Below the pieces are notes generated by a model. It made no database searches. It was not told the origin of the DNA and was given only the letters and a program-made list of their open reading frames with translations. This document shows positions 11,194 through 47,268 of a DNA stretch of 63,171 nucleotides, one piece after another (the stretch's first letter is position 1; each line of letters begins with the position of its first letter). Source of the stretch: Bacteroides faecis (lineage in GTDB: Bacteria; Bacillota; Clostridia; Oscillospirales; Acutalibacteraceae); assembly GCA_963625295.1 (NCBI GenBank), contig CAVFTC010000001.1, positions 1 through 63,171 on the forward strand. The letters run 5' to 3'. Position numbers and translations under genes: made by a program.

Positions 11194-12501
11194 ATGAAAG
11201 TTGTTATAGCAGGAGCAGGTCACGGAGGTCTTGTCGCAGCGGCGGAGCTTGCCAAGACGGGTTATGATGTCAGCGTTTATGAGACAAAGCACCGAAAAGA
11301 GCTTGGACACGACTGGGAGGATCGTTTCACATTTGATTTGCTTTTAGAAGCAGTCGGAAAGGACGAGCTTCCGGACGGAAGCTGGCGCTACAGGGGCGAT
11401 TGCGCCTTTGTATCGCCGAACTATAAGACGAATATTGTTATCAACTATACCGACGAAAACCGTCAAAAAATCATGTGGCGCAAGCCGCTGATAGATATGC
11501 TGACGGATAATGCCGAAAAATGCGGTGCAAAGCTTATTTTCGACACAGAGGTCACCGCTCCGATCGTCAGAGGCGGCCGTGTTGTTGGCATAAAAACCTC
11601 AAGCGGCGATATCGAAGCTGATCTTGTCATTGACTCGGCAGGTGTTTTTTCACCCGTCCGCAGCAAGCTGCCCGAAAGCTTCGAAATCGAGAAAAAGCCG
11701 AAGCGAGGCGATGTTTTCTATGCATACAGAGCCTATTTCAACAAGACTGACAATGAGCTTCCCAATGTTCCATTTGAGGTTTATCTCTGCCACGCAAGAG
11801 AGCAGGGTCTTTCATGGTGCTGCACAAATGACGACAGCGTCGATATACTCATCGGCAGAATCGATCCACTTAACGAAGAGATGCTTCAAAAGCATATTGA
11901 AAATTTCCGTAAAACGCACCCGTACATCGGCCATGAAATTTTACACGGCGGCAATTACGGAATAATCCCCGTTCGCCGTCCGCTTGCGTTGATGGTTGCC
12001 AACGGATATGCCGCAGTGGGTGACAGCGCATTCATGACAACTCCGATGAACGGAATGGGAATCGACCTTTCGCTGCAAGCAGGCAAGCTGCTTGCCGATA
12101 CCGTAATAAAAAGCGGCGGCGACGCTTCGATCGAAAATCTTTGGAAATACAACCGTGATTTTCATTCGCTTTACGGTGCGGAAACGGCAAAGAACGAGGG
12201 ATTAAAAAACGCTCTGCTGAATCTTCCCGGAGAGGGCGTTGACTTCCTTTTTGAAAGTGCTGTTATTGAAGCCTCGGACCTTGCCGGAGCAGGAAAAGAC
12301 ACCGATATAATCAATCTTCTCGGCAAATTTGTAAGAGGAATGAAAAATCCGTCGCACTTCATGACTGTTATCGACGGAATTGCTCAGGGAACGGTTATGT
12401 CCAAGCTGTTGAAATACGCTCCCGGAGAGTTTAACAGAGATAAAATAATGAAATGGCAAAAGGAAATTCAGCGGCATGTAATCAAGATCGAAAGAAAATA
12501 A
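11194..12501 (+). CDS. NAD(P)/FAD-dependent oxidoreductase (geranylgeranyl-reductase-like)
   Basis: N-terminal Rossmann motif VVIAGAGHGGLVAAAELAK...YE; 435 aa. Confidence 0.8.
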   Translation: MKVVIAGAGHGGLVAAAELAKTGYDVSVYETKHRKELGHDWEDRFTFDLLLEAVGKDELPDGSWRYRGDCAFVSPNYKTNIVINYTDENRQKIMWRKPLIDMLTDNAEKCGAKLIFDTEVTAPIVRGGRVVGIKTSSGDIEADLVIDSAGVFSPVRSKLPESFEIEKKPKRGDVFYAYRAYFNKTDNELPNVPFEVYLCHAREQGLSWCCTNDDSVDILIGRIDPLNEEMLQKHIENFRKTHPYIGHEILHGGNYGIIPVRRPLALMVANGYAAVGDSAFMTTPMNGMGIDLSLQAGKLLADTVIKSGGDASIENLWKYNRDFHSLYGAETAKNEGLKNALLNLPGEGVDFLFESAVIEASDLAGAGKDTDIINLLGKFVRGMKNPSHFMTVIDGIAQGTVMSKLLKYAPGEFNRDKIMKWQKEIQRHVIKIERK

Positions 12502-12514
12502 GGGAGGAAACAAA

Positions 12515-13426
12515 ATGGCAAAGGGGTTAAACAACATATTTTTTCCGTTCCCGACCTGGATAAAAGCGCTTCGGGGACGCTATACGCATAAGGATATCGG
12601 CGGATTCTGCAATAGCAATTGGATGGCGGAAATTGACGGAGAAAAATTTATAAACGAGTTCTCAATTCCCGGCTCTCACGATTCCTGCGCACTGTACGAA
12701 CCCCTCAGAGAGCTTGCACAGTGCCAATCTCATACAATTACAGATCAGCTCAACATGGGCGTTCGCTATCTCGATATCCGAGCCAATGTTGTCAAAGGCG
12801 ACCTTGCCATATCCCACGGACCGATTTTTCAAGGTATAACCTTTGACAAGGTTATCAGCCAATGCTGCGATTTTCTCGGCAAAAATCCGAGCGAGACGAT
12901 TATAATTTCGCTCAAGCACGAGCTTGTTTCAAGGGATAAAAAGAATGAGTTTAACTCGATATTTTTTAAAAAGCTCGAAGCCCACAAGGAAATATGGTTC
13001 ATCGAAAACCGCCTGCCGAAACTCTCCGAGGTCAGAGGAAAATTGATCCTCCTTAGCCGTGTAAAGGGGCTCGGAATCGGAATCGACGCTTCGGAAAATT
13101 GGATTCACAACGGCGTTTCAATGATCGAACACAGCGACTTTTACCTGCATATTCAAGATAAATTCAAGCTCGAAAGCATTGAAGAAGCGTGGGATTTTGC
13201 AACGGCGCATATCCGTGAAATCCGCAAGGAAATTGACGGAAAGATGACCCTCAGCATAAATTTTCACAGTGGAGTTCTGGGGTATCCTCATGTTCCGAGA
13301 GTTGCAGAATATGTTAATTCAGAATTTTTGAAGCTTTTCCGCAACAAAAAATCGCACCTCGGCATTGCCGTTTTCGACTTCATTACGCCGGAAATTTGCA
13401 GTACGGTTATTGACACAAACAAATAA
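12515..13426 (+). CDS. Phosphatidylinositol-specific phospholipase C X-domain protein
   Basis: IPGSHDS and YLDIR motifs of the PI-PLC X domain; no obvious signal peptide. Confidence 0.75.
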   Translation: MAKGLNNIFFPFPTWIKALRGRYTHKDIGGFCNSNWMAEIDGEKFINEFSIPGSHDSCALYEPLRELAQCQSHTITDQLNMGVRYLDIRANVVKGDLAISHGPIFQGITFDKVISQCCDFLGKNPSETIIISLKHELVSRDKKNEFNSIFFKKLEAHKEIWFIENRLPKLSEVRGKLILLSRVKGLGIGIDASENWIHNGVSMIEHSDFYLHIQDKFKLESIEEAWDFATAHIREIRKEIDGKMTLSINFHSGVLGYPHVPRVAEYVNSEFLKLFRNKKSHLGIAVFDFITPEICSTVIDTNK

Positions 13427-13433
13427 ATACAAA

Positions 13434-13470
13434 GTGACCGTCCTCGTTTGAGAGCGGTCACTGCCTTTAT
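13434..13470 (+). terminator. Probable terminator hairpin
   Basis: GTGACCG...CGGTCAC followed by a T-rich tract, directly abutting the MITE copy. Confidence 0.5.
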
Positions 13471-13638
13471 TTAAGGCAACACCGCACAAATCGAGGCGCA
13501 CGCCTTGCTTGAATATGTTTCCGTCATGCTGCACAAAAATTCCTTGACTTGCGTCAGCAAGCCTACAAAATTTTTGTACAACCTGACGAAAAATCTTACT
13601 GCGCAATTCGCACACCTCAATTGTGCGGTATTGCCTTA
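13471..13638. mobile_element. Full-length ~168-bp MITE-like element with terminal inverted repeats
   Basis: TTAAGGCAACACCGCACAAATCGAGGCGCAC... at one end. The reverse complement of the other end is TAAGGCAATACCGCACAATTGAGGTGTGCG. Homologous copies lie at 19247, 60523, 1 and 63131. Confidence 0.85.
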
Positions 13639-13644
13639 GTTTTT

Positions 13645-14700
13645 TCAGAACTTAAAATCGGAATATTTGACTGTCGTTGATGCCGAGCCACCGGCATTTT
13701 TTATTGTTACAACATACTTTGTATCGGTAAGAGTAACCGAGAAGTCAAACGAAACCGTCAGACTTTCGAGATTTCCGCTCGAGGCATTTACAACAGCAAC
13801 ACATTTTACATTCGACGAGCTTTCGTTTACGGACTTAACAGATGCGCCGTCGGTGTTGTTGATTGCCGAATAAAGATTTTCCGCACACTTGTGGTCATAT
13901 GCGGATTTATCGCCCGTTCCGACAAGTATTCCGCTTCGGTCAACGGGAGAGCTGTTCTTTTTGTTAGCCGAATCGGCTGAGCTTGAGCCGTTGTTGAGAA
14001 CAAGCGTGTATGTATATTTTCCGCCGCTGAGCGTATAGCTTGCGCTTTTAACATCTGCGTCCTTAAGCGCAGCGGTTGACATAAACTCGCTTTTGCCTTT
14101 TGCGTTTGAAAATGTCTTGTCGCCTACGCCGAGGAAATCTGAAACAGCGTCCTTGACAACGCTCATTTTTCCGAACGCACCTGCGTCAAGGCTGTTGAGC
14201 TTCGTGTTTCTCGACTTTGAATAGCCGGCCTTTGAGCTTATAGCCTTATTGACTGCGGCATTATAATTACCGATAATCTGCGCAGTCGTGAGCTTCGCCG
14301 GAGCAGTCGTAGTTTTCTTTGTTGTGGTGGTTACATTTTTGGTGGTGGTCGTAGCCTTCTTCGTGGTTGTAGCCTTTTGTGTCGTCGTTGTTTTCTTTGT
14401 AGTATTTTTTTCGGCCGCAGTTGTCTTGGCCGGTTCTGCTTTGGCTGTGGTGCTTTCACCGGTAGCGGCTTCGGTCGTTGCTTCCTGCGACTGAGCTTCG
14501 GTTGTATTTTCCGTTTCAGGCTCGGTTGTCGTAACAATTTCCTTTTCCTCTTTGCCGCCGTCGTTTTTTGTCGAAGTAAGAATTGACGGGATAAACTTGC
14601 CGATGCGTTCGTTAAAGCCCTTGCCTACATACACGAACGATCCGCACATCATTGCAACGCAAAGCACAACGGTAACGCAAATAACAATCGTTTTCTTCAT
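13645..14700 (-). CDS. Membrane-anchored or secreted protein with a Thr/Lys-rich linker
   Basis: MKKTIVICVTVVLCVAMMCGSFVYV anchor, about 100 aa of T/K/A/E low complexity, then a globular C-terminal domain. I prefer the start at 14700. Confidence 0.65.
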   Translation of the reverse strand: MKKTIVICVTVVLCVAMMCGSFVYVGKGFNERIGKFIPSILTSTKNDGGKEEKEIVTTTEPETENTTEAQSQEATTEAATGESTTAKAEPAKTTAAEKNTTKKTTTTQKATTTKKATTTTKNVTTTTKKTTTAPAKLTTAQIIGNYNAAVNKAISSKAGYSKSRNTKLNSLDAGAFGKMSVVKDAVSDFLGVGDKTFSNAKGKSEFMSTAALKDADVKSASYTLSGGKYTYTLVLNNGSSSADSANKKNSSPVDRSGILVGTGDKSAYDHKCAENLYSAINNTDGASVKSVNESSSNVKCVAVVNASSGNLESLTVSFDFSVTLTDTKYVVTIKNAGGSASTTVKYSDFKF

Positions 14701-29961: not shown

Positions 29962-30046
29962 GCGGATATGGCGGAATTGGCAGACGCGTTGGATTTAGGA
30001 TCCAATATCTTCTGATGTGCAGGTTCAAGTCCTGTTATCCGCACCA
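29962..30046 (+). tRNA. tRNA-Leu (anticodon UAG), type II with long variable arm and encoded CCA
   Basis: Acceptor GCGGATA/TATCCGC, anticodon arm TTGGA-TTTAGGA-TCCAA, T-loop TTCAAGT, discriminator A, then CCA. Confidence 0.9.
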
Positions 30047-34766: not shown

Positions 34767-35849
34767 TCAGTCAAGCTTTACCTTGTATGTCCAGCCCATG
34801 TCGTCCTCAACATGACCTGTCTGCATACCGTAGAGCGTATCGTAAAGCTTCTGAGCGATCGGACCTACATTGCCGTCGGCAACCTTGTAATCCTCGCCCA
34901 TGTAATAAAGTGTGCCGATCGGAGAGATAACTGCGGCAGTACCGCTGGCAAATACCTCCTTGAGAGTGCCTGCCTTGGAGGCTGCGCATACATCGTCGAT
35001 TGAAAGGCGTCTCTCCGATACCTTTACTCCCCACTTCTTGAGAAGCTCGATGACGGACTTTCTTGTAATACCGGGAAGAATCGTACCCATAAGCGGAGCA
35101 GTGATGACCTCGTCGCCGATTACGAAGAAGGCGTTTGAAGTGCCGATCTCCTCAACATACTTATGCTCAACAGCGTCAAGCCAAAGAACATCCTTGCAGT
35201 CATGCTCCATAGCCTTTGCCGAAGCCTTCATGCCACCTGCATAGTTGCCGCCGCACTTTGCAAAGCCTGTACCGCCGACAGCCGCACGGATGAATTCATC
35301 CTCAACATAAATCCTTGTCGTGTGAAGTCCGCCGTCGTTTGCGGCATAGTAAGAACCGACGGGGCAAAGAATGATGATAAAGCGATAATGCTTTGCCGGA
35401 AGAACGCTGAACGAAACCTCGTCGCCGAAGATAAACGGTCTGATATAAAGAGCGGTTGCCGGCTCGGTGGGTATCCAATCCTTATCAACGGTAATAAGCT
35501 GGTTGATGGCGTCAAAGAAAATATCCTTTTCCATATGCGGAATACACATACGGTCATTGGTTCTGTTCATACGCTCAAAGTTCTCCTCGGGTCTGAAAAG
35601 CTGAACATCGCCCGACGGAGTTTTATATGCCTTCATGCCCTCGAACATCATCTGGGCATAGTGGAGCACGCATGAAGCGGGTTCAATGGCGATCGGCTCA
35701 TGCGGAACAATTCTTCCGTCATGCCAGCCCTGTCCCTCATCGTAGTCGATCATAAACATATGATCCGTGAAATATTTACCGAAGCCGAGCTTCTTCTGAT
35801 CCGGCTTCTCCTTCGGATGTGTTGTTCTTGTTACTGGAAATGTATACAT
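34767..35849 (-). CDS. ilvE: Branched-chain amino acid aminotransferase
   Basis: About 360 aa from the ATG at 35849 (AAAGGAG RBS). Type IV aminotransferase motifs: FGKYFTDHMF, EGMKAY, GGTG.AK.GGNYA. Confidence 0.9.
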   Translation of the reverse strand: MYTFPVTRTTHPKEKPDQKKLGFGKYFTDHMFMIDYDEGQGWHDGRIVPHEPIAIEPASCVLHYAQMMFEGMKAYKTPSGDVQLFRPEENFERMNRTNDRMCIPHMEKDIFFDAINQLITVDKDWIPTEPATALYIRPFIFGDEVSFSVLPAKHYRFIIILCPVGSYYAANDGGLHTTRIYVEDEFIRAAVGGTGFAKCGGNYAGGMKASAKAMEHDCKDVLWLDAVEHKYVEEIGTSNAFFVIGDEVITAPLMGTILPGITRKSVIELLKKWGVKVSERRLSIDDVCAASKAGTLKEVFASGTAAVISPIGTLYYMGEDYKVADGNVGPIAQKLYDTLYGMQTGHVEDDMGWTYKVKLD

Positions 35850-35881
35850 TTCTGTCGCTCCTTTCAAAGCATTCATTTTGT

Positions 35882-35917
35882 CAATGCCGCACATCTCAAT
35901 TGTGCGGATTTGCCTTA
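35882..35917. repeat. Solo MITE terminus (contains the internal CCGCACA/TGTGCGG hairpin)
   Basis: The reverse complement reads TAAGGCAAATCCGCACAATTGAGATGTGCGGCATTG. Its terminal TAA is the stop codon of the C-N hydrolase gene. Confidence 0.75.
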
Positions 35918-36721
35918 TAATTCATAGAGATCGGGTTTTCTGTCGTTGAAAACATTGATCGAGCTTCTTATATCCTTTATTATTCCGAAATCGCAGTCAG
36001 CTGTGATGACCTCCTGCGCCTCGCCTGCCGCAGCGAGCACCTCGCCCCACGGGTCGATTATCTGCGAATGACCGCCGAAAACTGCGTCCGGTGTTTTTCC
36101 GCAGGAGTTGCAGCAGACAACAAACATCTGATTTTCAATCGCTCTTGCTCTTGTGAGTGTAACGATGTGTTCCTTTCTCGCAAGAGGCCACTGCGACACC
36201 ATAAACAGCATGTCAATGCCCCTTAGGGCAAGGCTTCTGACAAGCTCGCAGAAGCGGATATCGTAGCAGATTACGACGCCGCACTTATGTCCGTCAAGCT
36301 CGAAGGTCACAAGCTTTTCGCCGAAGCTAAAATATTTGTGCTCGTCCATCGGGGTGAAAAGGTGCGTCTTGTCATATTCGGCAACGACATCGCCCTTACG
36401 GTTGAAAACAAACGCCGTGTTGTAAATCCCGCCGTTCTTTTCGTTGGCGATACTGCCGGCAACGATGTTTACATTAAGCTCCCTTGCCAACGCCGAAAAG
36501 GTCTTTTTCAGCCTCTCGCCGTCTTTGTCACAATAGCTCGAAAGATTTTCCTTGGGATAATATCCCGTCGTCCATGTTTCGGGAAGAACGATAACATCGG
36601 ATTTTTCTTTCGCTGCCGTCTCCCTTATCAGTCTGACAGCCTCGTTGTAGTTATATTCAACATCGCCGAGCTTCATATCAAGCTGAATGCAGGAAGCCTT
36701 CATTGTATTATTCATAATCAT
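35915..36721 (-). CDS. Carbon-nitrogen hydrolase (nitrilase/omega-amidase superfamily)
   Basis: Catalytic E-K-C contexts: VLPE, the Lys in YDKTHLF and the Cys in GVVICYDIRF. Alternative starts are 36739, 36715 or 36703. Confidence 0.8.
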   Translation of the reverse strand: MIMNNTMKASCIQLDMKLGDVEYNYNEAVRLIRETAAKEKSDVIVLPETWTTGYYPKENLSSYCDKDGERLKKTFSALARELNVNIVAGSIANEKNGGIYNTAFVFNRKGDVVAEYDKTHLFTPMDEHKYFSFGEKLVTFELDGHKCGVVICYDIRFCELVRSLALRGIDMLFMVSQWPLARKEHIVTLTRARAIENQMFVVCCNSCGKTPDAVFGGHSQIIDPWGEVLAAAGEAQEVITADCDFGIIKDIRSSINVFNDRKPDLYEL

Positions 36722-37247
36722 AACCTGCCTTGACAGCACCCTTGTTCACATCAAGGAGATCAAGGTGACGGGCGGAAACAACCTTCTTGAGTGCGTCATC
36801 GGTATAATCAATCGAAAACTGCGGCACTTCCTTGAGAATCTTGCCCGTGATTATCATATTCGCAAGGGTCGGCGTTCCGTTATCGTTCGCCATTTTTGTT
36901 GCAGGAATATAATATACATCAACATCTGTTCTGTCAATCTTTTTGTCGATCATTGTTGAATCAACAAAAATCTTTCCGCCGCTGACAACATCGTTTTCGT
37001 ATTTTTCAAGTGACGGAAGATTCATTGCAACAAGCACATCCGGCTTGTCAACGATTGGAGAGCCGATCGGCTCGTCGCTGATAATCACGGAGCAGTTGGC
37101 AGTGCCGCCTCTCATTTCCGGTCCGTAGGACGGAAGCCAGCTGACCTGCTTGCCCTCGATAAGTCCCTTATATGCAAGGAATTTGCCTGCAAACAGAATT
37201 CCCTGTCCGCCGAAGCCTGCGAATAACATTCTGCAAGTGCTGCTCAT
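36708..37247 (-). CDS. 2-oxoacid:ferredoxin oxidoreductase, gamma subunit
   Basis: 179 aa; the GFGGQGI motif typical of POR/KOR/VOR gamma subunits. Confidence 0.85.
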
Positions 37248-37999
37248 TTTTCTTCCTCCTTTGCATAGATATCCTTGTAAACGCCGAGAGGATAGTAAGG
37301 AATCATGTTCTCCTCTGCCCAGTCAAGAGCCTTCTGCGGAGTCATTCCCCAGTTTGTAGGGCAGGTTGAAATAACCTCAACGAGAGAAAAGCCCTTGCCC
37401 TCAAGCTGATTCTTGAATGCCTTTTTGATAGCCTTTTTAGCGTTCTTGACATTTTTTACATTGTTGACAGCAACTCTCTCAAGATATGCCGCACCGTCAA
37501 CATTTGAAAGAAGCTCGCAAACCTTAACGGGATAGCCGACGGTGTTGACATCTCTGCCGTAGGGTGAGGTCTGGGTGACCTGACCGGGAAGCGTTGTCGG
37601 AGCCATCTGACCGCCCGTCATACCGTAAATAGCATTGTTAACGAAAATAACGGTGATATTCTCCCGTCTTGCAGCGGCATGAACCGTCTCGGCAGTACCG
37701 ATAGCGGCAAGGTCGCCGTCGCCCTGATATGTGAATACAACCTTTGACGGGTCGCTTCTCTTAACGCCTGTTGCAACGGCAGGAGCACGGCCGTGAGCCG
37801 CCTGAACAAAATCACATGTGAAATAGTTATATGCCATAACAGAGCAGCCGACCGATGCGACGCCGATCGTATCACCCTCGATTCCAAGCTCATCAATTAC
37901 CTCTGCAACCAGACGGTGAATAATACCGTGAGTACAGCCGGGACAATAGTGAAGCGTTGCGTCCGTCAATGATTTCGGTTTTTCAAATACAACTGACAT
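37244..37999 (-). CDS. 2-oxoacid:ferredoxin oxidoreductase, beta (TPP-binding) subunit
   Basis: CPGCTHG, GDGD....G and [10 protein letters not shown] motifs. The start at 37999 overlaps the alpha stop (TAATG). Confidence 0.85.
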
Positions 38000-39057
38000 T
38001 ATTCTGCACCTCCGTTTGACATGATAGCCGAAAGAACATCCTCCGGCGTCGGGATCATTCCGCCGACACGGTTGCAAAGCTCAACCGGTCTTTTGCAATC
38101 GATCGCAAGCTTCACATCGTCGATCATCTGACCCATGTTCATTTCAACAGTTATAAATCTCTTGCACTTCTCGGCAGCAGCCTTGAGCGGCTTTGTCGGG
38201 AACGGCCAGAGCGTGATCGGTCTTATCATGCCGACCTTGACGCCTCTCTTGCGTGCCTCATTGACTGCGTTCTTTGCCACACGGGCGGTGATACCGAACG
38301 CAACAACGCAAACCTCGGCGTCCTCCATGAGATATTCCTCGTACATCGTTTCGTTTTCTTCGATCGTCTTATATTTCTGATATCTCTCGAAATTCTTTAT
38401 TTCAAGCTCCTCGGGCTTGAGGTAAAGCGAATTGACTATGTTATGCTCTCTCTCACACTTTGTGCCGGTGAGTGCCCACGGCTTTTCAACCGGAGTTACC
38501 TCGGCAACATCGAGGGAAACCGGCTCCATCATCTGACCCATTGTGCCGTCGGCAAGGATCATTGCAACCATTCTGTATTTATCCGCAAGCTCAAAGCCCT
38601 TGACGGTGAGGCTTGCCATTTCCTGAACGGAAGCCGGTGCAAGTACGATATTGTGGTAATCGCCGTGTCCGCCACCCTTTGTTGACTGCCAGTAATCCGA
38701 CTGTGAGGGCTGAATTCCGCCGAGTCCGGGGCCGCCACGCTGAACATTGACCACGAGTGCGGGAAGGTCGCAGCCGGCGAGATATGAAATACCCTCGCTT
38801 TTAAGCGAAACTCCGGGGCTGGAGGAGGAGGTCATGACTCTCTTGCCTGTTGACGAAACGCCGATAACCATGTTGATTGCAGCGATCTCGCTCTCCGCCT
38901 GCAGGAATGTTCCGCCGATCTTCGGCATACGCTTTGACATGTAAGCCGCAACCTCTGTCTGCGGAGTTATGGGATAACCGAAGTAATGTCGGCAGCCTGC
39001 TCTGATAGCAGCCTCGGCAATTGCTTCGTTGCCTTTCATAAGTACTTTATCTGACAT
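37999..39057 (-). CDS. vorB: 2-oxoacid:ferredoxin oxidoreductase, alpha subunit (VorB-like)
   Basis: [36 protein letters not shown]-terminus typical of VorB/KorA-type alpha subunits. The longer track ORF runs into the ferredoxin gene. Confidence 0.8.
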
Positions 39058-39062
39058 TTTCT

Positions 39063-39269
39063 TCACCTCTCTACCGTAATAACACAATCGGGGCACATTG
39101 TAGCGCAGAAGGCGCATCCGATACACTTTTCCTGTTCCGTCACAACTGCGGGATGATGTCCCTTGTTGTTCAAAGTCGTCTCTGACAAATGAACTATTCC
39201 CTTGGGACAAGCGTTCACGCAAAGTCCGCAGCCCTTGCAAAGGTCTGTTTTGAATGTTACTTTAGCCAT
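39063..39269 (-). CDS. 2x[4Fe-4S] ferredoxin (delta subunit)
   Basis: Two CxxCxxCxxxCP motifs in 68 aa. Confidence 0.9.
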   Translation of the reverse strand: MAKVTFKTDLCKGCGLCVNACPKGIVHLSETTLNNKGHHPAVVTEQEKCIGCAFCATMCPDCVITVER

Positions 39270-39281
39270 TTGACATTCCTC

Positions 39282-39938
39282 CTAATTTATTTTCGCCTGT
39301 AGGGTAAGCGGAAGCATATTGCTCACTCGCCCGTACAGCTCTTTATAAAGCGTCTTTTTTACGGTAGTCATCGCAACGGGAAGCCCCGTAAGCTTTGAAA
39401 CCTCATCGGCATATTTGAGCGAATCAAGAACATCCTGAGCGGTCGTCTCCTCGCCGAGATTTGAGTTGTTTATTATAGCCGTAAATTTCATTGAACCGGC
39501 TTTTTCGATTTCATTCATGACCTCAAGGGTGCTGTAAGCGTCCCTTGTCAGCGGTCTGTACATGTTTATTACAAGAAACATCTCATAGTCGTTTTCCCGT
39601 ACTATGCTTTCGGAATAGCGGCCGAGAGCGTATGCGCCTCTGTCGTCGCCGCCGATATCCATAACAGCGTATTCCGTGCGGTCGTCAATGACAGAATATA
39701 TATCCTGCGGCAGCGAGGGAAGATCAACATTTGAGCTTGCAAAGTCCGAGCAGATAAGTCTTATCCCGGCGGCTTTAAGCTCCTTTTCGCTGTCCTTGGT
39801 TCTGAAATACGGGTTGACGATATCCAAATCCGCAACAGCCACCTCAAGACCCTGCTGTCTGAGCTTAAAAGCGTAATTGACCGCTATATTCGTTTTTCCG
39901 CTGCCGTAATGACCGGCAAAAAGCGTTATGCGCTTCAT
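39282..39938 (-). CDS. MinD/ParA/CooC-like P-loop ATPase
   Basis: Deviant Walker A GHYGSGKTN; 218 aa; first gene of the oxidoreductase operon. Confidence 0.7.
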   Translation of the reverse strand: MKRITLFAGHYGSGKTNIAVNYAFKLRQQGLEVAVADLDIVNPYFRTKDSEKELKAAGIRLICSDFASSNVDLPSLPQDIYSVIDDRTEYAVMDIGGDDRGAYALGRYSESIVRENDYEMFLVINMYRPLTRDAYSTLEVMNEIEKAGSMKFTAIINNSNLGEETTAQDVLDSLKYADEVSKLTGLPVAMTTVKKTLYKELYGRVSNMLPLTLQAKIN

Positions 39939-40000: not shown

Positions 40001-40020
40001 ATCTTTAATATCTAATCGGT

Positions 40021-40330
40021 GTGCCAAACCTTAGGATAAATTGTTCAGCGTGCGTCGAGTTCAAGGCGACAGGCTGACGCAACTATGTGTATTGCTAAGT
40101 CTGTCAACGCAGAAATCGGCGTACCAAACCTTAGGATAAATTGTTCAAGGTGCGTCGAGTTCAAGGCAACAGGCTAACGCAATACTATGTGTATTGCTAA
40201 GTCTGTCAACGCAGAAATCGGCGTGCCAAACCTTAGGATAAATTGTTCAGGGTGCGTCGAGTTCAAGGCGACAGGCTGACGCAATACTATGTGTATTGCT
40301 AAGTCTGTCAACGCAGAAATCGGCGTGCCA
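40021..40330. repeat. Three head-to-tail ~101-bp direct repeats plus a 6-nt partial fourth unit
   Basis: Units at 40021-40120, 40121-40222 and 40223-40324. Unit 1 vs unit 3 differ by 1 substitution and a 2-nt indel; unit 2 vs unit 3 differ by 4 substitutions. Each unit holds a ~17-bp imperfect hairpin. Confidence 0.95.
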
Positions 40331-40338
40331 TGGACAAT

Positions 40339-42609
40339 TTACAGCTGATTACGGATGATTTTGCCGCTTATAGTCTTTGGAAGCTCGTCCTTGAACACAA
40401 CGATTCTCGGGTACTTGTAAGGAGCGGTGTGCTTCTTAACATAGTTCTGAATTTCTTTTTTAAGCTCCTCGGTCGGCTCTGTGCCCTTGGTAAGGACAAT
40501 GGAAGCCTTGACGACCTGTCCTCTTACCTCGTCGGGAGCAGCGGAAACGCCGCACTCAAGAACATAAGGAAGCTCCATGATAACATTTTCGATCTCGAAC
40601 GGTCCGATACGGTAGCCGGACGATTTGATAACATCGTCGATACGGCCGACATACCAGAAATATCCGTCCTCATCACGCCATGCGATATCGCCCGTGTGAT
40701 AAACGCCGTCGTGCCAAACCTCGTCTGTACGATCCTGATTTCTGTAGTAGCCGAGGAATATACCGCACGGTACTTTCTCGGAAGTGTTGACGCAGATTTC
40801 ACCGGTTTCACCGATATCCGCTTCCGTTCCGTCGGGACGAAGAATCTTGATGTCGTAAAGCGGCGTCGGCTTGCCCATTGAGCCGGGCTTCGGAGTCATT
40901 CCGGTGAGCGTTGCTATTCCAAGAGTCATCTCCGTTTGACCGAAGCCCTCCATAAGCTCAAGTCCGGTAGCATTATAGAACTGGCGGAATACCTCCGGGT
41001 TAAGTGCCTCACCGGCTGTTGTTGCGTGACGGATAGAGGAAAGATCGTACTTTGCGAGATCCTCCTTTATCATCATTCTGTACATCGTCGGAGGTGCGCA
41101 GAATGTTGTGATGTTATATTGCTTGAACATCGGAAGAATATCCGACGCATCGAAGCGGTCGAAGTTATATACAAATACTGCGCCCTCGCAGAGCCACTGT
41201 CCGTAGAGCTTGCCCCAAAGAGCCTTGCCCCAGCCGGTGTCGGAGATTGTAAGGTGAAGTCCGTCCTTGCTTACGCAGTGCCAATATTTAGCGGTGATAT
41301 AGTGTCCGAGCGGATATTTGTAGGAATGGGTTGCGATTTTCGGATAGCCCGTTGTGCCGGAGGTGAAGAACATAAGCATCGGATCGTTTCCGCACGGTGC
41401 GTCCTCTTCCCTTCTGTATCTTCTGGAGAACAGGCTGTATTCGCTGTCGAAGCTGTGCCAGCCCTCACGCTCGCCGCCGACAATGATTTTGTTGACGAGA
41501 GTATGCGTCTTTGCGTCGGCGATGTCAACCTGATGAGCGGTGTCGCCGTCGGCTGTGCAAAGAATTGTCGTTACTCCTGCCGCCTCAAATCTGTACTCAA
41601 AGTCATGGTCAACAAGAAGATTCGTTGCCGGAATTGCGATTGCGCCGATCTTATGAAGCGCAAGGATTGCAAACCAGAACTGATAATGACGCTTGAGAAC
41701 AAGCATTACCCTGTCGCCCTTCTTTATGCCGAGCGACTTGAAGTAGTTGGCCGCCTGTGCCGAGTGCTCCTTGACATCCTTAAATGTGAAGATGCGTTCC
41801 GTCTTATCGCGGTCAACATGAACGAGTGCACGCTTGTCAGGGGATTTTTTTGCAATTTTATCAACGATATCAAAAGCGAAGTTGAATTCATCCTCATGAT
41901 TAAAATCAATGGAAACAAGATTTCCGTTTTCGTCCTCTGTTGCGTCAATAAACTTCTCGCAAACATAGCTGCCCTTTGCCTTTACGCCCTTGACAGCTCT
42001 TTCGTGAACGATATTCGTTACCGTATCATCACTTGCCATGACCATCGCAAGGAAGAGACAATCCCTGCCGTCGATGGCAACCATTCCGTGAGGCGTTGAG
42101 GAGTTATAATAAATGCTGTCGCCCTCGTTAAGAATCTCCTCATGATTTCCGACTCTTACTCTCAGTGAACCGCTGATAACGATATCGAACTCCTGACCAC
42201 CGTGAGTTACGGTGCTTATCGGTTTATTTTCAAGCTCCGCGTCATACTCGTATCTAACCCAGTACGGCTCGGAAAGCTTTTTTCTGAAATTCGGTGCAAG
42301 GTTTTTGATTTCGATTCCGTTCTCGCTGGCGGTGATCTGACCCTTGCCCAGTCTTGTAACGGTATAGGATGAAAGCACGGCGCTGTGACCTTCAAGAAGA
42401 TCCGTAATGCCAATGTCAAAAGCAAGTGCACACTTGTGAATAAAAGTGAAAGGAAGGTCAACCGTTCCGCTCTCATAGAGCCTGTAGGTTTCAACAGAGA
42501 CTTCAGACTTCTCCGCCATTTCCTCAACGGTAAAGCCGCATATGTCTCTCATTTCCTGGATACGCTCAGCAACCTCATAAAGCTTGTTTGATTCGTTTTG
42601 ATTTGACAT
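40339..42609 (-). CDS. XRE-HTH + cupin domain fused to an AMP-forming medium-chain acyl-CoA synthetase
   Basis: N-terminal ~190 aa: HTH (ICGFTVEEMAEKSEVSVETYRLYESG) and cupin (GQEFDIVISGSL...YYNSSTPHGM). Remainder: ACSM/MacS-like ligase (MFFTSGTTGYPK, YGQTE, YHTGD, SGKIIR). Confidence 0.85.
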   Translation of the reverse strand: MSNQNESNKLYEVAERIQEMRDICGFTVEEMAEKSEVSVETYRLYESGTVDLPFTFIHKCALAFDIGITDLLEGHSAVLSSYTVTRLGKGQITASENGIEIKNLAPNFRKKLSEPYWVRYEYDAELENKPISTVTHGGQEFDIVISGSLRVRVGNHEEILNEGDSIYYNSSTPHGMVAIDGRDCLFLAMVMASDDTVTNIVHERAVKGVKAKGSYVCEKFIDATEDENGNLVSIDFNHEDEFNFAFDIVDKIAKKSPDKRALVHVDRDKTERIFTFKDVKEHSAQAANYFKSLGIKKGDRVMLVLKRHYQFWFAILALHKIGAIAIPATNLLVDHDFEYRFEAAGVTTILCTADGDTAHQVDIADAKTHTLVNKIIVGGEREGWHSFDSEYSLFSRRYRREEDAPCGNDPMLMFFTSGTTGYPKIATHSYKYPLGHYITAKYWHCVSKDGLHLTISDTGWGKALWGKLYGQWLCEGAVFVYNFDRFDASDILPMFKQYNITTFCAPPTMYRMMIKEDLAKYDLSSIRHATTAGEALNPEVFRQFYNATGLELMEGFGQTEMTLGIATLTGMTPKPGSMGKPTPLYDIKILRPDGTEADIGETGEICVNTSEKVPCGIFLGYYRNQDRTDEVWHDGVYHTGDIAWRDEDGYFWYVGRIDDVIKSSGYRIGPFEIENVIMELPYVLECGVSAAPDEVRGQVVKASIVLTKGTEPTEELKKEIQNYVKKHTAPYKYPRIVVFKDELPKTISGKIIRNQL

Positions 42610-42651: not shown

Positions 42652-42947
42652 AACAAAAAATCCGTCCCAAAGTCATTAGAACTTTGAGACGGATTTGAAT
42701 ATCCGCGGTACCACTCAAATTGCGATCTGCTATTGCTTCTCGCCTCTCTGCAGGATCTGACAATCCCTCAACACTGACGTAGTTGTCACGGGAGAAACTA
42801 CTGTAGTTTTCATCTCTCCGGCTCGGAAGTGATGGGCTTTACATTTACCTCGCTATCGGCTCGCACCAAACGCCGACTCTCTGAAAGGACATAAACGCAA
42901 CCGTCTTCGTCACAGCCTTTGTTTCAACAGGTTATTTGTACCTGTTG
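42652..42947 (-). promoter_or_regulatory. T-box riboswitch leader, putative Ile (AUC) specifier
   Basis: Minus strand shows a K-turn (TGACGAAG / CTTCCGAGCC), AGAGAG bulge, distal loop GGTGCGA, T-box AATTTGAGTGGTACCGCGG (42703-42721) and the terminator TCCGTCTCAAAG...CTTTGGGACGGA + TTTTTT. Confidence 0.85.
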
Positions 42948-42953
42948 CGGTAC

Positions 42954-42982
42954 ATTATAAGATACTTTTCACAATTTTTCAA
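42954..42982 (-). promoter_or_regulatory. Promoter of the T-box(Ile) leader
   Basis: On the minus strand: TTGAAA, 17 nt, TATAAT. Confidence 0.7.
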
Positions 42983-43019: not shown

Positions 43020-45518
43020 TTACGCAGTTACAACAGAATTTGCCTTTTGCAGTCCGTATTTCTTGATTGCGTCCTCACGCATCTTGTATTTAAGAATCTT
43101 ACCGGCAACATTCATCGGGAACTCGGACACAAAGTCAATGTACTTCGGCACTTTATGCTTCGCCATATGAGAAAGAACATAGTCCTTCATCTCCTGCTCG
43201 GTCATGGTTTCGCCCTCCTTGAGGATAATGCAAGCCATTATCTCCTCGCCGAGTCCCTCGTCGGGAACGCCGATTACCTGAACATCCTTGACCTTCGGGT
43301 GGGTGTAAATGAACTCCTCAATCTCCTTGGGATAGATATTCTCGCCGCCACGGATAATCATATCCTTAAGTCTGCCTGTGATTCTGTAGTTGCCCTCCGG
43401 AGTGCGGCACGCAAGGTCGCCGGTATGAAGCCAGCCGTCCTTGTCGATTGCGCTTGCCGTAGCCTTCGGCATTTTATAGTAACCCTTCATGATGTTGTAT
43501 CCACGGGCAACGAACTCACCGGTCACATTGTCCGGGCATTCAAGACCCGTATCGGGGTCAACGATTTTACATTCGATTTTCGGAAGCGGATGACCGACAG
43601 TAGCCACACGATCCTCCAGCGGGTCGTCAGTGCTGCTCATCGTACAGCCCGGAGATGATTCCGTCTGACCGTAAACGATTGTGATTTCGGTCATATGCAT
43701 TTTTTCGACAACCTCACGCATCTTTGAGATCGGACACGGCGAGCCTGCCATGATACCCGTTCTCATGTATGAAAAATCGGTCTTTTCAAAGTCGGGGTGC
43801 TGTAGCATTGCGATAAACATCGTCGGAACGCCGTGGAAAGCCGTTATACGCTCGGAATTTATACACGCAAGCGATGATTTCGGCGAGAAATACGGTAATG
43901 GGAGAGCCGTTCCGCCGTGGGTCATGATGGCAGTCATGGCAAGAACCATGCCGAAGCAATGGAACATCGGAACATGGATCATCATTCTGTCCGCCGTTGA
44001 AAGATCCATTCTGTCGCCGATACACTTACCGTTGTTTACGACATTGTAGTGGGTAAGCATAACGCCCTTCGGGAAGCCTGTTGTACCGGAGGTGTACTGC
44101 ATATTGCATACATCGTCCCTCCTGACAAGAGAAGCCATTCTGTAGACCTCCTCGACAGGAACCTCGCTCGACTTGTCAACCGCCTGCTCCCATGTCATAC
44201 AGCCCTGCTGCTCATAGCCGACCGTAATAATATTTCTCAAAAACGGCAATCTCTTTGCGTGGAGCTTTTCGCCGCTCTTGGTGCTTTCCAGCTCAGGGCA
44301 AAGCTCAGCCATGATCTCGTCATAGTGTGAGTCTCTGTAGCCCTTTATCATAATCAGCGTATGAGTATCCGACTGTCTGAGCAGATATTCCGCCTCGTGA
44401 ATTTTATATGCCGTGTTCATTGTAACAAGAACAGCGCCGATTTTGGTGGTCGCCCAAAACGAAATATACCACTGCGGAACATTGGTTGCCCAAACGGCAA
44501 CATGAGAGCCGGCTTTTACGCCCATTGCAATAAGCGCTCTCGCAAAGGTATCAACATCGTCACGGAACTGCGCATATGTTCTCGTATAGTCAAGCGTTGT
44601 ATATTTGAATGCAAGCTGATCGGGAAACTCCTCAACCATTCTGTCAAGAACCTGCGGGAATGTCTCCTCGATAAGCTCCTCTTTTTTCCAGATGAATTTG
44701 CCTGTATGGGTCTTGTTGTAGTAGTATTTCTTCTTGCTTGTCTCGTCCGCAACAGTCTCCATAAAGCTCTCATAATGAGTCAAAATGATTTCAAGATCGT
44801 CTATCGACTCGAACCACTCGGGATTCCATTCAACGCAAACAAAGCCGTTGTAATTTATCGAGCCGAGAGCATTCATCATGTCCTTGATAGGCATTGCGCC
44901 CTCGCCGATGAGAGTGTGCTCGCCTGCCTTCACGGCGTCGGTCAGATGGACAAGCTTGACATATGCGCCAAGGTTGGTAATGGTCTTTTCCGAATCCTCG
45001 CCGCCGACGAAGTATGTTTCATACATATTCCAATCTGCGCCGATAAAGTCGCTTGCAAAATAGTTCATCAAATCGCAGAGCCTTGTCGTGTCGGCAAAAA
45101 TGCCCGTCGTTTCGACAAGGACGATAACATTGTGCTTTTCGCCCTCTGCGATAGCCTTGCCGATGAACTCAAGCGCCTTTTCGTAAGCGTCTTCGCCACC
45201 CTCAACATAGAGCTTGACATAGGGAATGTTTATGTTGCTTGCAACGGTGATAGCCGAGTTCATTTTTTCAATATTTTCGTCGGAATTATCTGCGGCGTTG
45301 CAGTTTGAATTTATGCAAACTATGCTCTTTTTCGAGTTGATGAGCTTTCTTTTGGTTGCCGAAGCCATGTCAGGATTAAACGGTGAGGTTCTGCCTGAAA
45401 ACATTGCGTCACGAAAATCGTGGATCTCAACTCCGCCGTATTTCAGCTCATCCGCCATATTGAGAAAGTCATCAAAGCTTTTATTCTTATGAAATCTTGT
45501 AGAAAAAGCTAATTTCAC
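43020..45518 (-). CDS. Xylose-isomerase-like TIM-barrel domain fused to an AMP-dependent acyl-CoA ligase
   Basis: N-terminal ~270 aa resemble AP-endonuclease-2 / sugar-phosphate-isomerase TIM barrels. The C-terminal ~560 aa are a FadD-type ligase (MQYTSGTTGFPKGVMLTH, YGQTE, LHTGD, AGKILK). GTG start with a GGAGGG RBS, 2 nt after the upstream stop. Confidence 0.8.
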   Translation of the reverse strand: MKLAFSTRFHKNKSFDDFLNMADELKYGGVEIHDFRDAMFSGRTSPFNPDMASATKRKLINSKKSIVCINSNCNAADNSDENIEKMNSAITVASNINIPYVKLYVEGGEDAYEKALEFIGKAIAEGEKHNVIVLVETTGIFADTTRLCDLMNYFASDFIGADWNMYETYFVGGEDSEKTITNLGAYVKLVHLTDAVKAGEHTLIGEGAMPIKDMMNALGSINYNGFVCVEWNPEWFESIDDLEIILTHYESFMETVADETSKKKYYYNKTHTGKFIWKKEELIEETFPQVLDRMVEEFPDQLAFKYTTLDYTRTYAQFRDDVDTFARALIAMGVKAGSHVAVWATNVPQWYISFWATTKIGAVLVTMNTAYKIHEAEYLLRQSDTHTLIMIKGYRDSHYDEIMAELCPELESTKSGEKLHAKRLPFLRNIITVGYEQQGCMTWEQAVDKSSEVPVEEVYRMASLVRRDDVCNMQYTSGTTGFPKGVMLTHYNVVNNGKCIGDRMDLSTADRMMIHVPMFHCFGMVLAMTAIMTHGGTALPLPYFSPKSSLACINSERITAFHGVPTMFIAMLQHPDFEKTDFSYMRTGIMAGSPCPISKMREVVEKMHMTEITIVYGQTESSPGCTMSSTDDPLEDRVATVGHPLPKIECKIVDPDTGLECPDNVTGEFVARGYNIMKGYYKMPKATASAIDKDGWLHTGDLACRTPEGNYRITGRLKDMIIRGGENIYPKEIEEFIYTHPKVKDVQVIGVPDEGLGEEIMACIILKEGETMTEQEMKDYVLSHMAKHKVPKYIDFVSEFPMNVAGKILKYKMREDAIKKYGLQKANSVVTA

Positions 45519-46936: not shown

Positions 46937-46959
46937 AACGATTCTCCTTTTGAAGTTAT

Positions 46960-47233
46960 AAAAAAACAAAGTCCCGGAAGTATTCAAACTTCCGGGACGA
47001 TAAAACATGTTTACCGCGGTACCACCCGCATTGCCTAAACGGCCTCTTCGGATTCTGACAAATCCTAAGCTGTGATAACGGTGCTTGCCGTAGCTCCTTA
47101 TACAGTAAAGACGGTTGGGGAGCTCTGCTCGGATACGAGACAGCAATTAAATTTCCATATCGGCTCACACCTACCGCCGACTCTCTGAAATCAGAAATAA
47201 AACGCTTAATATCTTCAACGCATTTCAAATATT
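46960..47233 (-). promoter_or_regulatory. T-box riboswitch leader, putative Leu (CUC) specifier
   Basis: Minus strand shows a K-turn (GCGTTGAAGATA / TATCCGAGCA), AGAGAG bulge, distal loop GGTGTGA, T-box GCGGGTGGTACCGCGG (47014-47029) and the terminator GTCCCGGAAG...CTTCCGGGAC + TTTGTTTTTTT. Confidence 0.85.
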
Positions 47234-47239
47234 GCAGTT

Positions 47240-47268
47240 ATTATAGTAAACTTTTTTTAATTTGTAAA
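47240..47268 (-). promoter_or_regulatory. Promoter of the T-box(Leu) leader
   Basis: On the minus strand: TTTACA, 17 nt, TATAAT. Confidence 0.7.

Follow-up and report, generated by a model that had tools for sequence, protein, structure and literature searches.

A Leu-specific T-box leader precedes a degenerate LeuA homolog and a translationally coupled acyl-CoA ligase in a proposed leucine-supply operon of gut Clostridia

LeuA (2-isopropylmalate synthase) is a DRE-TIM metallolyase with a C-terminal leucine-binding regulatory domain, and the ilv-leu leader of Bacillus subtilis, a T-box RNA, carries a CUC specifier codon. Leu T-boxes occur before leuA, ilv-leu operons, and leuS, and those upstream of genuine leuA genes are documented (PMC2494555, PMC2700814). 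Here we describe a Leu T-box leader in a 63,171-nucleotide stretch deposited as Bacteroides faecis (GTDB family Acutalibacteraceae, class Clostridia; assembly GCA_963625295.1, contig CAVFTC010000001.1, positions 1 to 63,171), the whole of which we call the window. Like described Leu T-boxes, an example of which precedes leuA in Geobacter (PMC2700814), this leader has a Stem I with a K-turn, an AG bulge, and a distal loop, the leucine specifier CUC, the bulge UGGU, and a switch between antiterminator and terminator, with a LeuA-type gene directly downstream. It differs in regulating not a biosynthetic leuA but a degenerate paralog of LeuA that is coupled to an acyl-CoA ligase, in that its compact specifier loop has no clear S-turn, and in that its orthologs have G, A, or C after the codon instead of a conserved purine.

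Other described systems resemble the genes that this leader precedes. MbcS of Staphylococcus aureus is an AMP-forming short branched-chain acyl-CoA synthetase that feeds lipid synthesis and activates 2-methylbutyrate and isobutyrate but hardly isovalerate (PMC10026030). It is the best NCBIfam match of neighboring ligases under Ile and Val T-boxes, whereas the ligase under the Leu T-box belongs to another ANL subgroup and has an N-terminal TIM barrel; T-box control is not known for MbcS. Leucine synthesis by carboxylation of isovalerate is long-established physiology of rumen bacteria (Allison 1962 and 1966, cited in PMC7356843). Its chemistry, from isovalerate through isovaleryl-CoA and 2-oxoisocaproate to leucine, is the same as we predict here, and the ecology is shared (most orthologs of the LeuA-like gene come from metagenome-assembled genomes of rumen and gut Clostridia), but that work is physiological and the link drawn here is genomic. 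In Geobacter, iorAB-paaK, listed under tryptophan (PMC2700814), follows the same logic of an amino-acid-responsive leader over a 2-oxoacid:ferredoxin oxidoreductase and an acyl-CoA ligase; it differs in serving an aromatic amino acid, in its leader type and phylum, and in having no LeuA-like partner.

The leader matches the complete T-box model of Rfam (RF00230, model positions 1 to 219) with 94.9 bits (E 1.5e-19), the gathering score being 93 bits, and ortholog leaders score between 80 and 125 bits. A permissive Rfam scan of the window returned, besides this match, only a second T-box and one tRNA (Table 1). The match is preceded, at a distance of about 13 nt, by a promoter-like site, which is a consensus match only. 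At the base of Stem I and its K-turn, the 5' strand UGCGUUGAAGAUA (47222-47210) faces the 3' strand UAUC-CGA-GC (47135-47127), and the UGA/GA motifs of a K-turn are present. The AG bulge reads AGAGA (47186-47182, minus strand), and the distal stem-loop (47180-47160, minus strand) has the loop GGUNGGUGNGA. In T-boxes, these Stem I elements provide the platform on which the tRNA elbow rests. Further downstream, UGGU occupies 47024-47021 (minus strand) within the conserved T-box sequence UGCGGGUGGUACCGCGG, and the terminator stem, with 7 G-C among its 11 pairs and a 6-nt loop, is followed by UUUGUUUUUU. Six bases of the antiterminator 3' strand (47001-46993) also belong to the terminator 5' arm (46998-46989), and the two structures are therefore mutually exclusive. 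A preliminary description of this DNA had listed the K-turn base, distal region, T-box sequence, and terminator of such a leader, and we found all of them in their places on the minus strand.

The LeuA-like protein family is encoded in at least 600 species-level genomes, from which we retrieved 80 loci for comparison. A T-box lies upstream of the orthologous gene in 59 to 61 of these 80 other species, and the leader comparison used 59 leaders. The sequence GGTGGTACC was found in ortholog leaders, UGGU was invariant among the T-box motifs detected, and a hairpin with a U-run follows the T-box in 55 of the 59 leaders (median, -22 kcal/mol). The leader of the window folds better than all of 200 shuffled controls (z = -4.4). 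Covariation was assessed with an explicit four-helix structure of Stem I on the 59-sequence alignment, with slid partner columns and 500 shuffles as controls. In the four helices, 97.6% of alignment cells are paired, compared with 22 to 42% when partner columns are slid; 14 of 16 pairs have changed on both sides, and none of the shuffles reached the observed values. A chance match or a decayed T-box, which the low score margin might suggest, is ruled out by conservation and covariation in 59 species and by the conserved terminators. As an RNA, the Leu leader is a routine representative of RF00230.

In the Rfam alignment, CUC falls into the specifier slot with a single G after it, just as the preliminary description had read it from the sequence. 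Because the posterior probabilities of this alignment are low (4 to 6) around the specifier loop of the window, the register was tested by cross-species comparison, anchored on the 4-bp helix that adjoins the K-turn. The codon slot holds CUC in 48 orthologous leaders, CUG in 10, and CUA in 1, a leucine codon in 59 of 59, and Rfam alignments of divergent orthologs place CUG, CUA, CUC, and CUG in it. Both checks thus returned leucine codons only, in line with the specificity first proposed. The anchor helix itself covaries, occurring as GAUA/UAUC, GGAA/UUCC, GAAA/UUUC, GGCA/UGCC, GGAG/CUCC, GGUA/UACC, GGUG/CACC, and GGCG/CGCC. Between covarying helices, the specifier loop consists of 3 nt (UUA) opposite 6 nt (GU-CUC-G), at columns 14-16 and 90-95 of alignment A2 and at window positions 47207-47209 and 47136-47141. 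The earlier reading had held its register less certain on account of the G after the codon; that caution was justified but proves harmless, since this base is G in 28, A in 18, and C in 13 of the Leu leaders. The Ile T-boxes of these loci show the same departures from the textbook loop, several of them with C after the codon.

The 3' strand of the loop, G-U-C-U-C-G, physically permits four registers, so that a real T-box might sense another tRNA through a shifted specifier, GUC (Val), UCU (Ser), or UCG (Ser). Such a shift could draw on the low posterior probabilities and on the GUC that stands at register -2 in 47 of the 59 orthologs. Across species, however, register -2 is mixed (Val 47, Ala 7, Ile 2, and Cys, Gly, and Asn), as are register -1 (Ser, Pro, Ala, Thr) and register +1 (Ser, Trp, Cys, and two stop codons). 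Uniformity is confined to the canonical register of codon, one nucleotide, and helix; this register also yields Ile and Val for the neighboring T-boxes, and the high-confidence Rfam alignments of orthologs agree with it. The registers -3, -2, -1, and +1 were ruled out by mixed amino acids or stops, and we regard a shifted specifier as scarcely credible. That the RNA is a T-box with leucine specificity is, in our judgment, close to certain.

UGGU had been taken to predict an A73 discriminator, and this prediction agrees with the tRNA-Leu(UAG) of the window, which carries A73. This tRNA is compatible with the UGGU of the T-box, yet it is not the Watson-Crick partner of the CUC specifier. From the known action of T-boxes, we expect that when tRNA-Leu is largely uncharged, its anticodon would pair with CUC and its free ACCA 3' end with UGGU. 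This pairing would stabilize the antiterminator and let RNA polymerase read into the two translationally coupled genes. Charged tRNA would be unable to stabilize the antiterminator, and transcription would end at 46961-46998.

The first of the two genes, preceded by the Shine-Dalgarno sequence AAAGGAGA (46943-46950, minus strand), appears in databases as "hypothetical protein" or [quoted passage not shown] Its product has the same domain order and predicted fold as LeuA. The LeuA_dimer domain (PF08502) matches with 103.8 bits over profile positions 5 to 130 of 131, and an AlphaFold model (predicted local distance difference test score [pLDDT], 84) finds full-length Mycobacterium tuberculosis LeuA as its best Foldseek match (E 1e-22), with the barrel superposing on 3ewb at 1.8 A root mean square deviation. 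The protein differs from LeuA at the active site: in alignment to the LeuA structures 3ewb and 3rmj, RDGEQ is replaced by RESES and HCH(N/D)D by VEVVD, which upholds the earlier description of a degenerate homolog. LeuA D16 corresponds to E13, which is always Glu across the family; H204 corresponds to position 201, which is E or Q; and H206 corresponds to position 203, which varies among V, S, N, R, K, and A. In LeuA structures these Asp/His/His residues are the ligands of the divalent metal. The position of the catalytic Glu (140) is variable as well.

Conservation is concentrated in the other domain. Mean pairwise identity across the family is 77% in the regulatory domain and 48% in the barrel, with 46% and 14% of columns invariant, respectively; the GDGP.DA motif and most of the regulatory domain are invariant. 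Sequence alignment of this domain to leucine-bound M. tuberculosis LeuA, made for the pocket residues, gave a weak match (E 0.1). The LeuA-like protein thus combines LeuA architecture with a disrupted metal site and a regulatory domain under strong constraint.

If the LeuA-like protein were an active 2-isopropylmalate synthase, or a related synthase, the operon would be part of the usual de novo route to leucine. An active enzyme would fit the Pfam matches to HMGL-like and LeuA_dimer, the LeuA fold of the model, and the known T-boxes before genuine leuA genes (PMC2494555, PMC2700814). The loss of both His ligands, with replacements that the family does not conserve, and the variable catalytic Glu argue otherwise, and the protein misses every NCBIfam LeuA cut-off by far (NF002086, the best, 293 bits versus 532; TIGR00973, 269 versus 599). 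No leuBCD genes adjoin the operon, and the invariable partner is an acyl-CoA ligase. We rejected an active LeuA on its active-site residues and the NCBIfam cut-offs and hold this explanation to be very improbable.

The second gene encodes a fusion of a xylose-isomerase-like TIM barrel to an AMP-forming ligase. Its GTG start lies 2 nt past the stop codon of the LeuA-like gene, and a GGAGG Shine-Dalgarno sequence lies within the end of that upstream gene. The order of the LeuA-like gene followed by the TIM::ligase gene is kept in 80 of 80 loci, with 70 to 90% identity in the ligase domain. Intergenic distances of -4 to +3 nt predominate, and 41 of the 74 loci have a distance of -4, +2, or +3 nt. 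Residues L3, F5, and S6, encoded upstream of the publicly annotated ATG, are nearly invariant across fusion orthologs; with the Shine-Dalgarno sequence, they substantiate the translational coupling that the 2-nt gap and the GTG start had suggested. On the same grounds we rejected the internal ATG of the public annotation (812 amino acids) as the start. The GTG lies 60 nt upstream of that ATG, and the interval encodes a conserved first beta-strand (MKLxFS). In locus L001 the counterpart of the fusion gene is at 11479-13917. The public gene start is probably too short.

The ligase part matches PF00501 (303 bits) and PF13193 (64 bits). Its best NCBIfam match, PRK12583, scores 691 bits, below the cut-off of 832, and no NCBIfam equivalog cut-off is reached. 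In the PDB it finds generic ANL enzymes, the best a feruloyl/fatty-acyl-CoA synthetase (E 1e-73). A substrate assignment by homology was set aside on these results. The TIM domain has weak matches only, such as fructoselysine 3-epimerase (29 bits).

Downstream, the cluster continues with a second ligase under its own T-box, of Ile specificity, and with genes for a four-subunit 2-oxoacid:ferredoxin oxidoreductase of the 2-oxoisovalerate type (VOR) and a branched-chain aminotransferase (BCAT). The best NCBIfam match of the second ligase is MbcS (432 bits, below the 850-bit cut-off). The VOR alpha subunit exceeds the VorB cut-off (NF005507, 545.7 bits versus 399), with the beta and gamma subunits below theirs, and BCAT exceeds its own (NF009897, 465.4 bits versus 307). 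VOR, BCAT, and neighboring genes recur beside the LeuA-like/TIM::ligase module in other species. Ile T-boxes precede the first copy of the MbcS-like ligase with AUC in 25 of 25 leaders, and at six loci a second tandem copy of the helix-turn-helix (HTH)-cupin::MbcS-like ligase has a Val T-box with GUC or GUA.

The simplest reading of this genomic context, we infer, is that the cluster uses branched short-chain acids as the source of branched-chain amino acids. The operon under the Leu T-box would then be its isovalerate/leucine branch and supply leucine without recourse to the isopropylmalate pathway. Its AMP-forming ligase would activate isovalerate to isovaleryl-CoA, the neighboring VOR-type enzyme would reductively carboxylate isovaleryl-CoA to 2-oxoisocaproate, and BCAT would convert 2-oxoisocaproate to leucine. 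A lack of the corresponding amino acid would turn on each ligase of the cluster. MbcS barely uses isovalerate, and this acid is therefore left for a different ligase, the one under the Leu T-box. On balance we favor conversion of isovalerate to leucine as the role of the operon, with some reserve.

The ligase could instead make branched acyl-CoA primers for membrane fatty acid synthesis, as S. aureus MbcS does, or serve catabolism, and the closest named relative of the neighboring ligase does feed lipid synthesis (PMC10026030). Control by uncharged tRNA-Leu, tRNA-Ile, or tRNA-Val is, however, a signature of amino acid supply genes (PMC2494555), and VOR and BCAT are clustered with the ligases. 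Induction of a catabolic enzyme on leucine starvation would be counterproductive. We think a lipid or catabolic role improbable.

Overall, a tRNA-Leu-specific, transcription-attenuating T-box over a leucine-supply operon is the best explanation of the locus, and we hold it with good confidence. Several observations weigh against it. The Rfam score exceeds the gathering score by just 1.9 bits, and about 15 of the 80 ortholog loci have no recognizable T-box. The codon is followed by a base other than a purine in 22% of orthologs, and an AGUA/GAA S-turn is not evident in the compact specifier loop of this T-box clade. A cognate tRNA-Leu(GAG) was not found in the window, where the sole tRNA-Leu has a UAG anticodon. 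Isovalerate is proposed as the ligase substrate from context alone, and PDB and NCBIfam searches found no close characterized or solved relative of the fusion ligase. Polar barrel residues of the LeuA-like protein are invariant (D8, T10, R12, E13, E136, D141, R144, and D169), which makes a residual or new activity possible, and the canonical metal ligands of the fused TIM domain are partly conserved; H191 and D194 of this domain are invariant.

These last observations bear on whether the LeuA-like protein, perhaps with the fused TIM barrel, is an enzyme with a noncanonical site, for example, E13 and E/Q201, that performs new chemistry toward leucine on the substrate or product of the ligase. 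The invariance of E13, the restriction of position 201 to E or Q, the many invariant polar barrel residues, and the retained H191 and D194 would all suit such an enzyme, and the close translational coupling points to a complex. The family does not conserve the third metal ligand or the catalytic Glu, though, conservation of the barrel falls far short of that of the regulatory domain, and ligase, VOR, and BCAT already complete a route from isovalerate to leucine. We consider new chemistry unlikely.

More speculatively, the LeuA-like protein may be a pseudoenzyme that keeps a functional leucine-binding regulatory domain and serves as a leucine-responsive partner of the ligase, because that domain is conserved and the gene is translationally coupled to the ligase. 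Such a partner would add allosteric feedback to transcriptional control by the T-box. We put forward a leucine-sensing subunit tentatively, as a possibility that somewhat better than one chance in three would describe. A little more doubtful is the full combination, in which Leu, Ile, and Val T-boxes mark the hitherto unassigned genes of the isoacid route in Clostridia of the rumen and gut, and a duplicated LeuA, stripped of catalysis, is the leucine-sensing allosteric subunit of an isovalerate-CoA ligase.

Across the loci, the Leu, Ile, and Val T-boxes make one for each branched-chain amino acid. A Val T-box was not found in the window in a scan down to E 0.001; those of other loci are at L037:1000-1251(-), L041:~12660-12890(+), L054:~2700(-), L060:~2634(-), L064:~2764(-), and L079:~13050-13290(+). 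The loci named as lacking a T-box before the LeuA-like gene are L015, L019, L027, L029, L031, L033, L053, L063, L074, L077, L079, L080, and L083, and in L050 and L065 this gene sits within a longer VOR-BCAT operon. The ligase under the Ile T-box has a fused N-terminal XRE-type HTH and a cupin, an unusual regulator-like module on an enzyme, which may be the counterpart of the LeuA-like partner of the ligase under the Leu T-box.

Between VOR gamma and BCAT lies a CN-hydrolase gene (amidohydrolase or omega-amidase-like; 35915-36739, minus strand; below all NCBIfam cut-offs), and we speculate that its product might pull glutamine-dependent transamination forward. A CbiA/ParA-like P-loop NTPase (39282-39938, minus strand) precedes the ferredoxin-like delta subunit and VOR. 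The order CbiA-like, Fer4, POR alpha/beta/gamma recurs in L008, L009, L012, L047, L065, and L068, and the NTPase could be a maturation or iron-sulfur delivery factor. Between the MbcS-like ligase and the CbiA-like/VOR genes, window positions 40014-40330 hold 3.1 tandem copies of a 102-nt unit with 94% matches, two of which carry the promoter-like TTGACA-16-TAGTAT. In near-identical genomes the gap between the MbcS-like ligase and CbiA-like genes measures 299 nt (L001), 400 nt (window), and 499 nt (L002), from which the number of copies appears to differ by one unit. Related loci contain, in their flanking DNA, an unrelated tetrahydrofolate riboswitch (L041:3597-3697, 74.6 bits) and an equally unrelated ribosomal protein L10 leader (L033:4212-4389, 56.7 bits).

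Table 1. Positions of the leader elements, genes, and other features described in the window
Feature	Position	Strand	Basis or remark
T-box leader (RF00230)	46990..47227	-	Full-length Rfam match
Promoter-like site TTTACA (-35), 17-nt spacer, TATAAT (-10)	47268..47240	-	11/12 consensus matches
Stem I: base helix, K-turn, specifier loop, AG bulge, distal stem-loop	47125..47222	-	Sequence and covariation
Specifier codon CUC (Leu)	47139-47137	-	Rfam alignment; followed by G 47136 and helix strand UAUC 47135-47132
Conserved T-box sequence UGCGGGUGGUACCGCGG	47030-47014	-	Sequence and Rfam alignment
Antiterminator helix: 5' strand CGGG...GCGGU, 3' strand AUCGU-CCCG	46993..47028	-	Rfam consensus structure line
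Intrinsic terminator GUCCCGGAAG...CUUCCGGGAC	46998-46971; U-run 46970-46961	-	11-bp stem; in minimum-free-energy fold
LeuA-like protein, 471 amino acids	45521..46936	-	HMGL-like TIM barrel with degenerate metal site and LeuA_dimer (Pfam)
Fusion protein, 832 amino acids, GTG start	43020..45518	-	Xylose-isomerase-like TIM barrel and AMP-forming acyl-CoA ligase (Pfam, NCBIfam)
Ile (AUC) T-box	42682..42922	-	Rfam; own promoter-like site 42982..42954
HTH-cupin::MbcS-like acyl-CoA ligase	40339..42609	-	Pfam, NCBIfam
CbiA-like P-loop protein, ferredoxin-like delta, VOR alpha/beta/gamma, CN-hydrolase, branched-chain aminotransferase	34767..39938	-	Profile matches
tRNA-Leu(UAG), A73 discriminator, encoded CCA	29962-30046	+	Sole tRNA in the window

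The regulon under the Leu T-box appears to be undescribed. In the full-text literature searched and in T-box regulon surveys, we came upon no account of acyl-CoA ligases or VOR clusters under T-box control, nor any of the LeuA-like family, an absence within the searched literature and not proof of novelty; the papers searched likewise gave no assignment of genes to the isovalerate activation step. Since Leu T-boxes are known before genuine leuA genes, the arrangement suggests that the T-box traveled with a duplicated leuA.

Few sequence features name the amino acid that a gene serves, and a specifier codon is one of them. Here the Leu T-box assigns a widespread and unnamed gene pair, present in at least 600 species-level genomes, to leucine supply, and its sister T-boxes assign the neighboring ligases to isoleucine and valine. 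Together with VOR and BCAT, the T-boxes provide gene candidates for the carboxylation routes from isovalerate, 2-methylbutyrate, and isobutyrate, which rumen physiology has recognized since the 1960s and which underlie the isoacid requirement of fiber-degrading bacteria. The LeuA-like protein offers a testable case of a biosynthetic enzyme turned regulatory pseudoenzyme. If that proposal is true, a pseudoenzyme would have transferred feedback control between the committed steps of two pathways.

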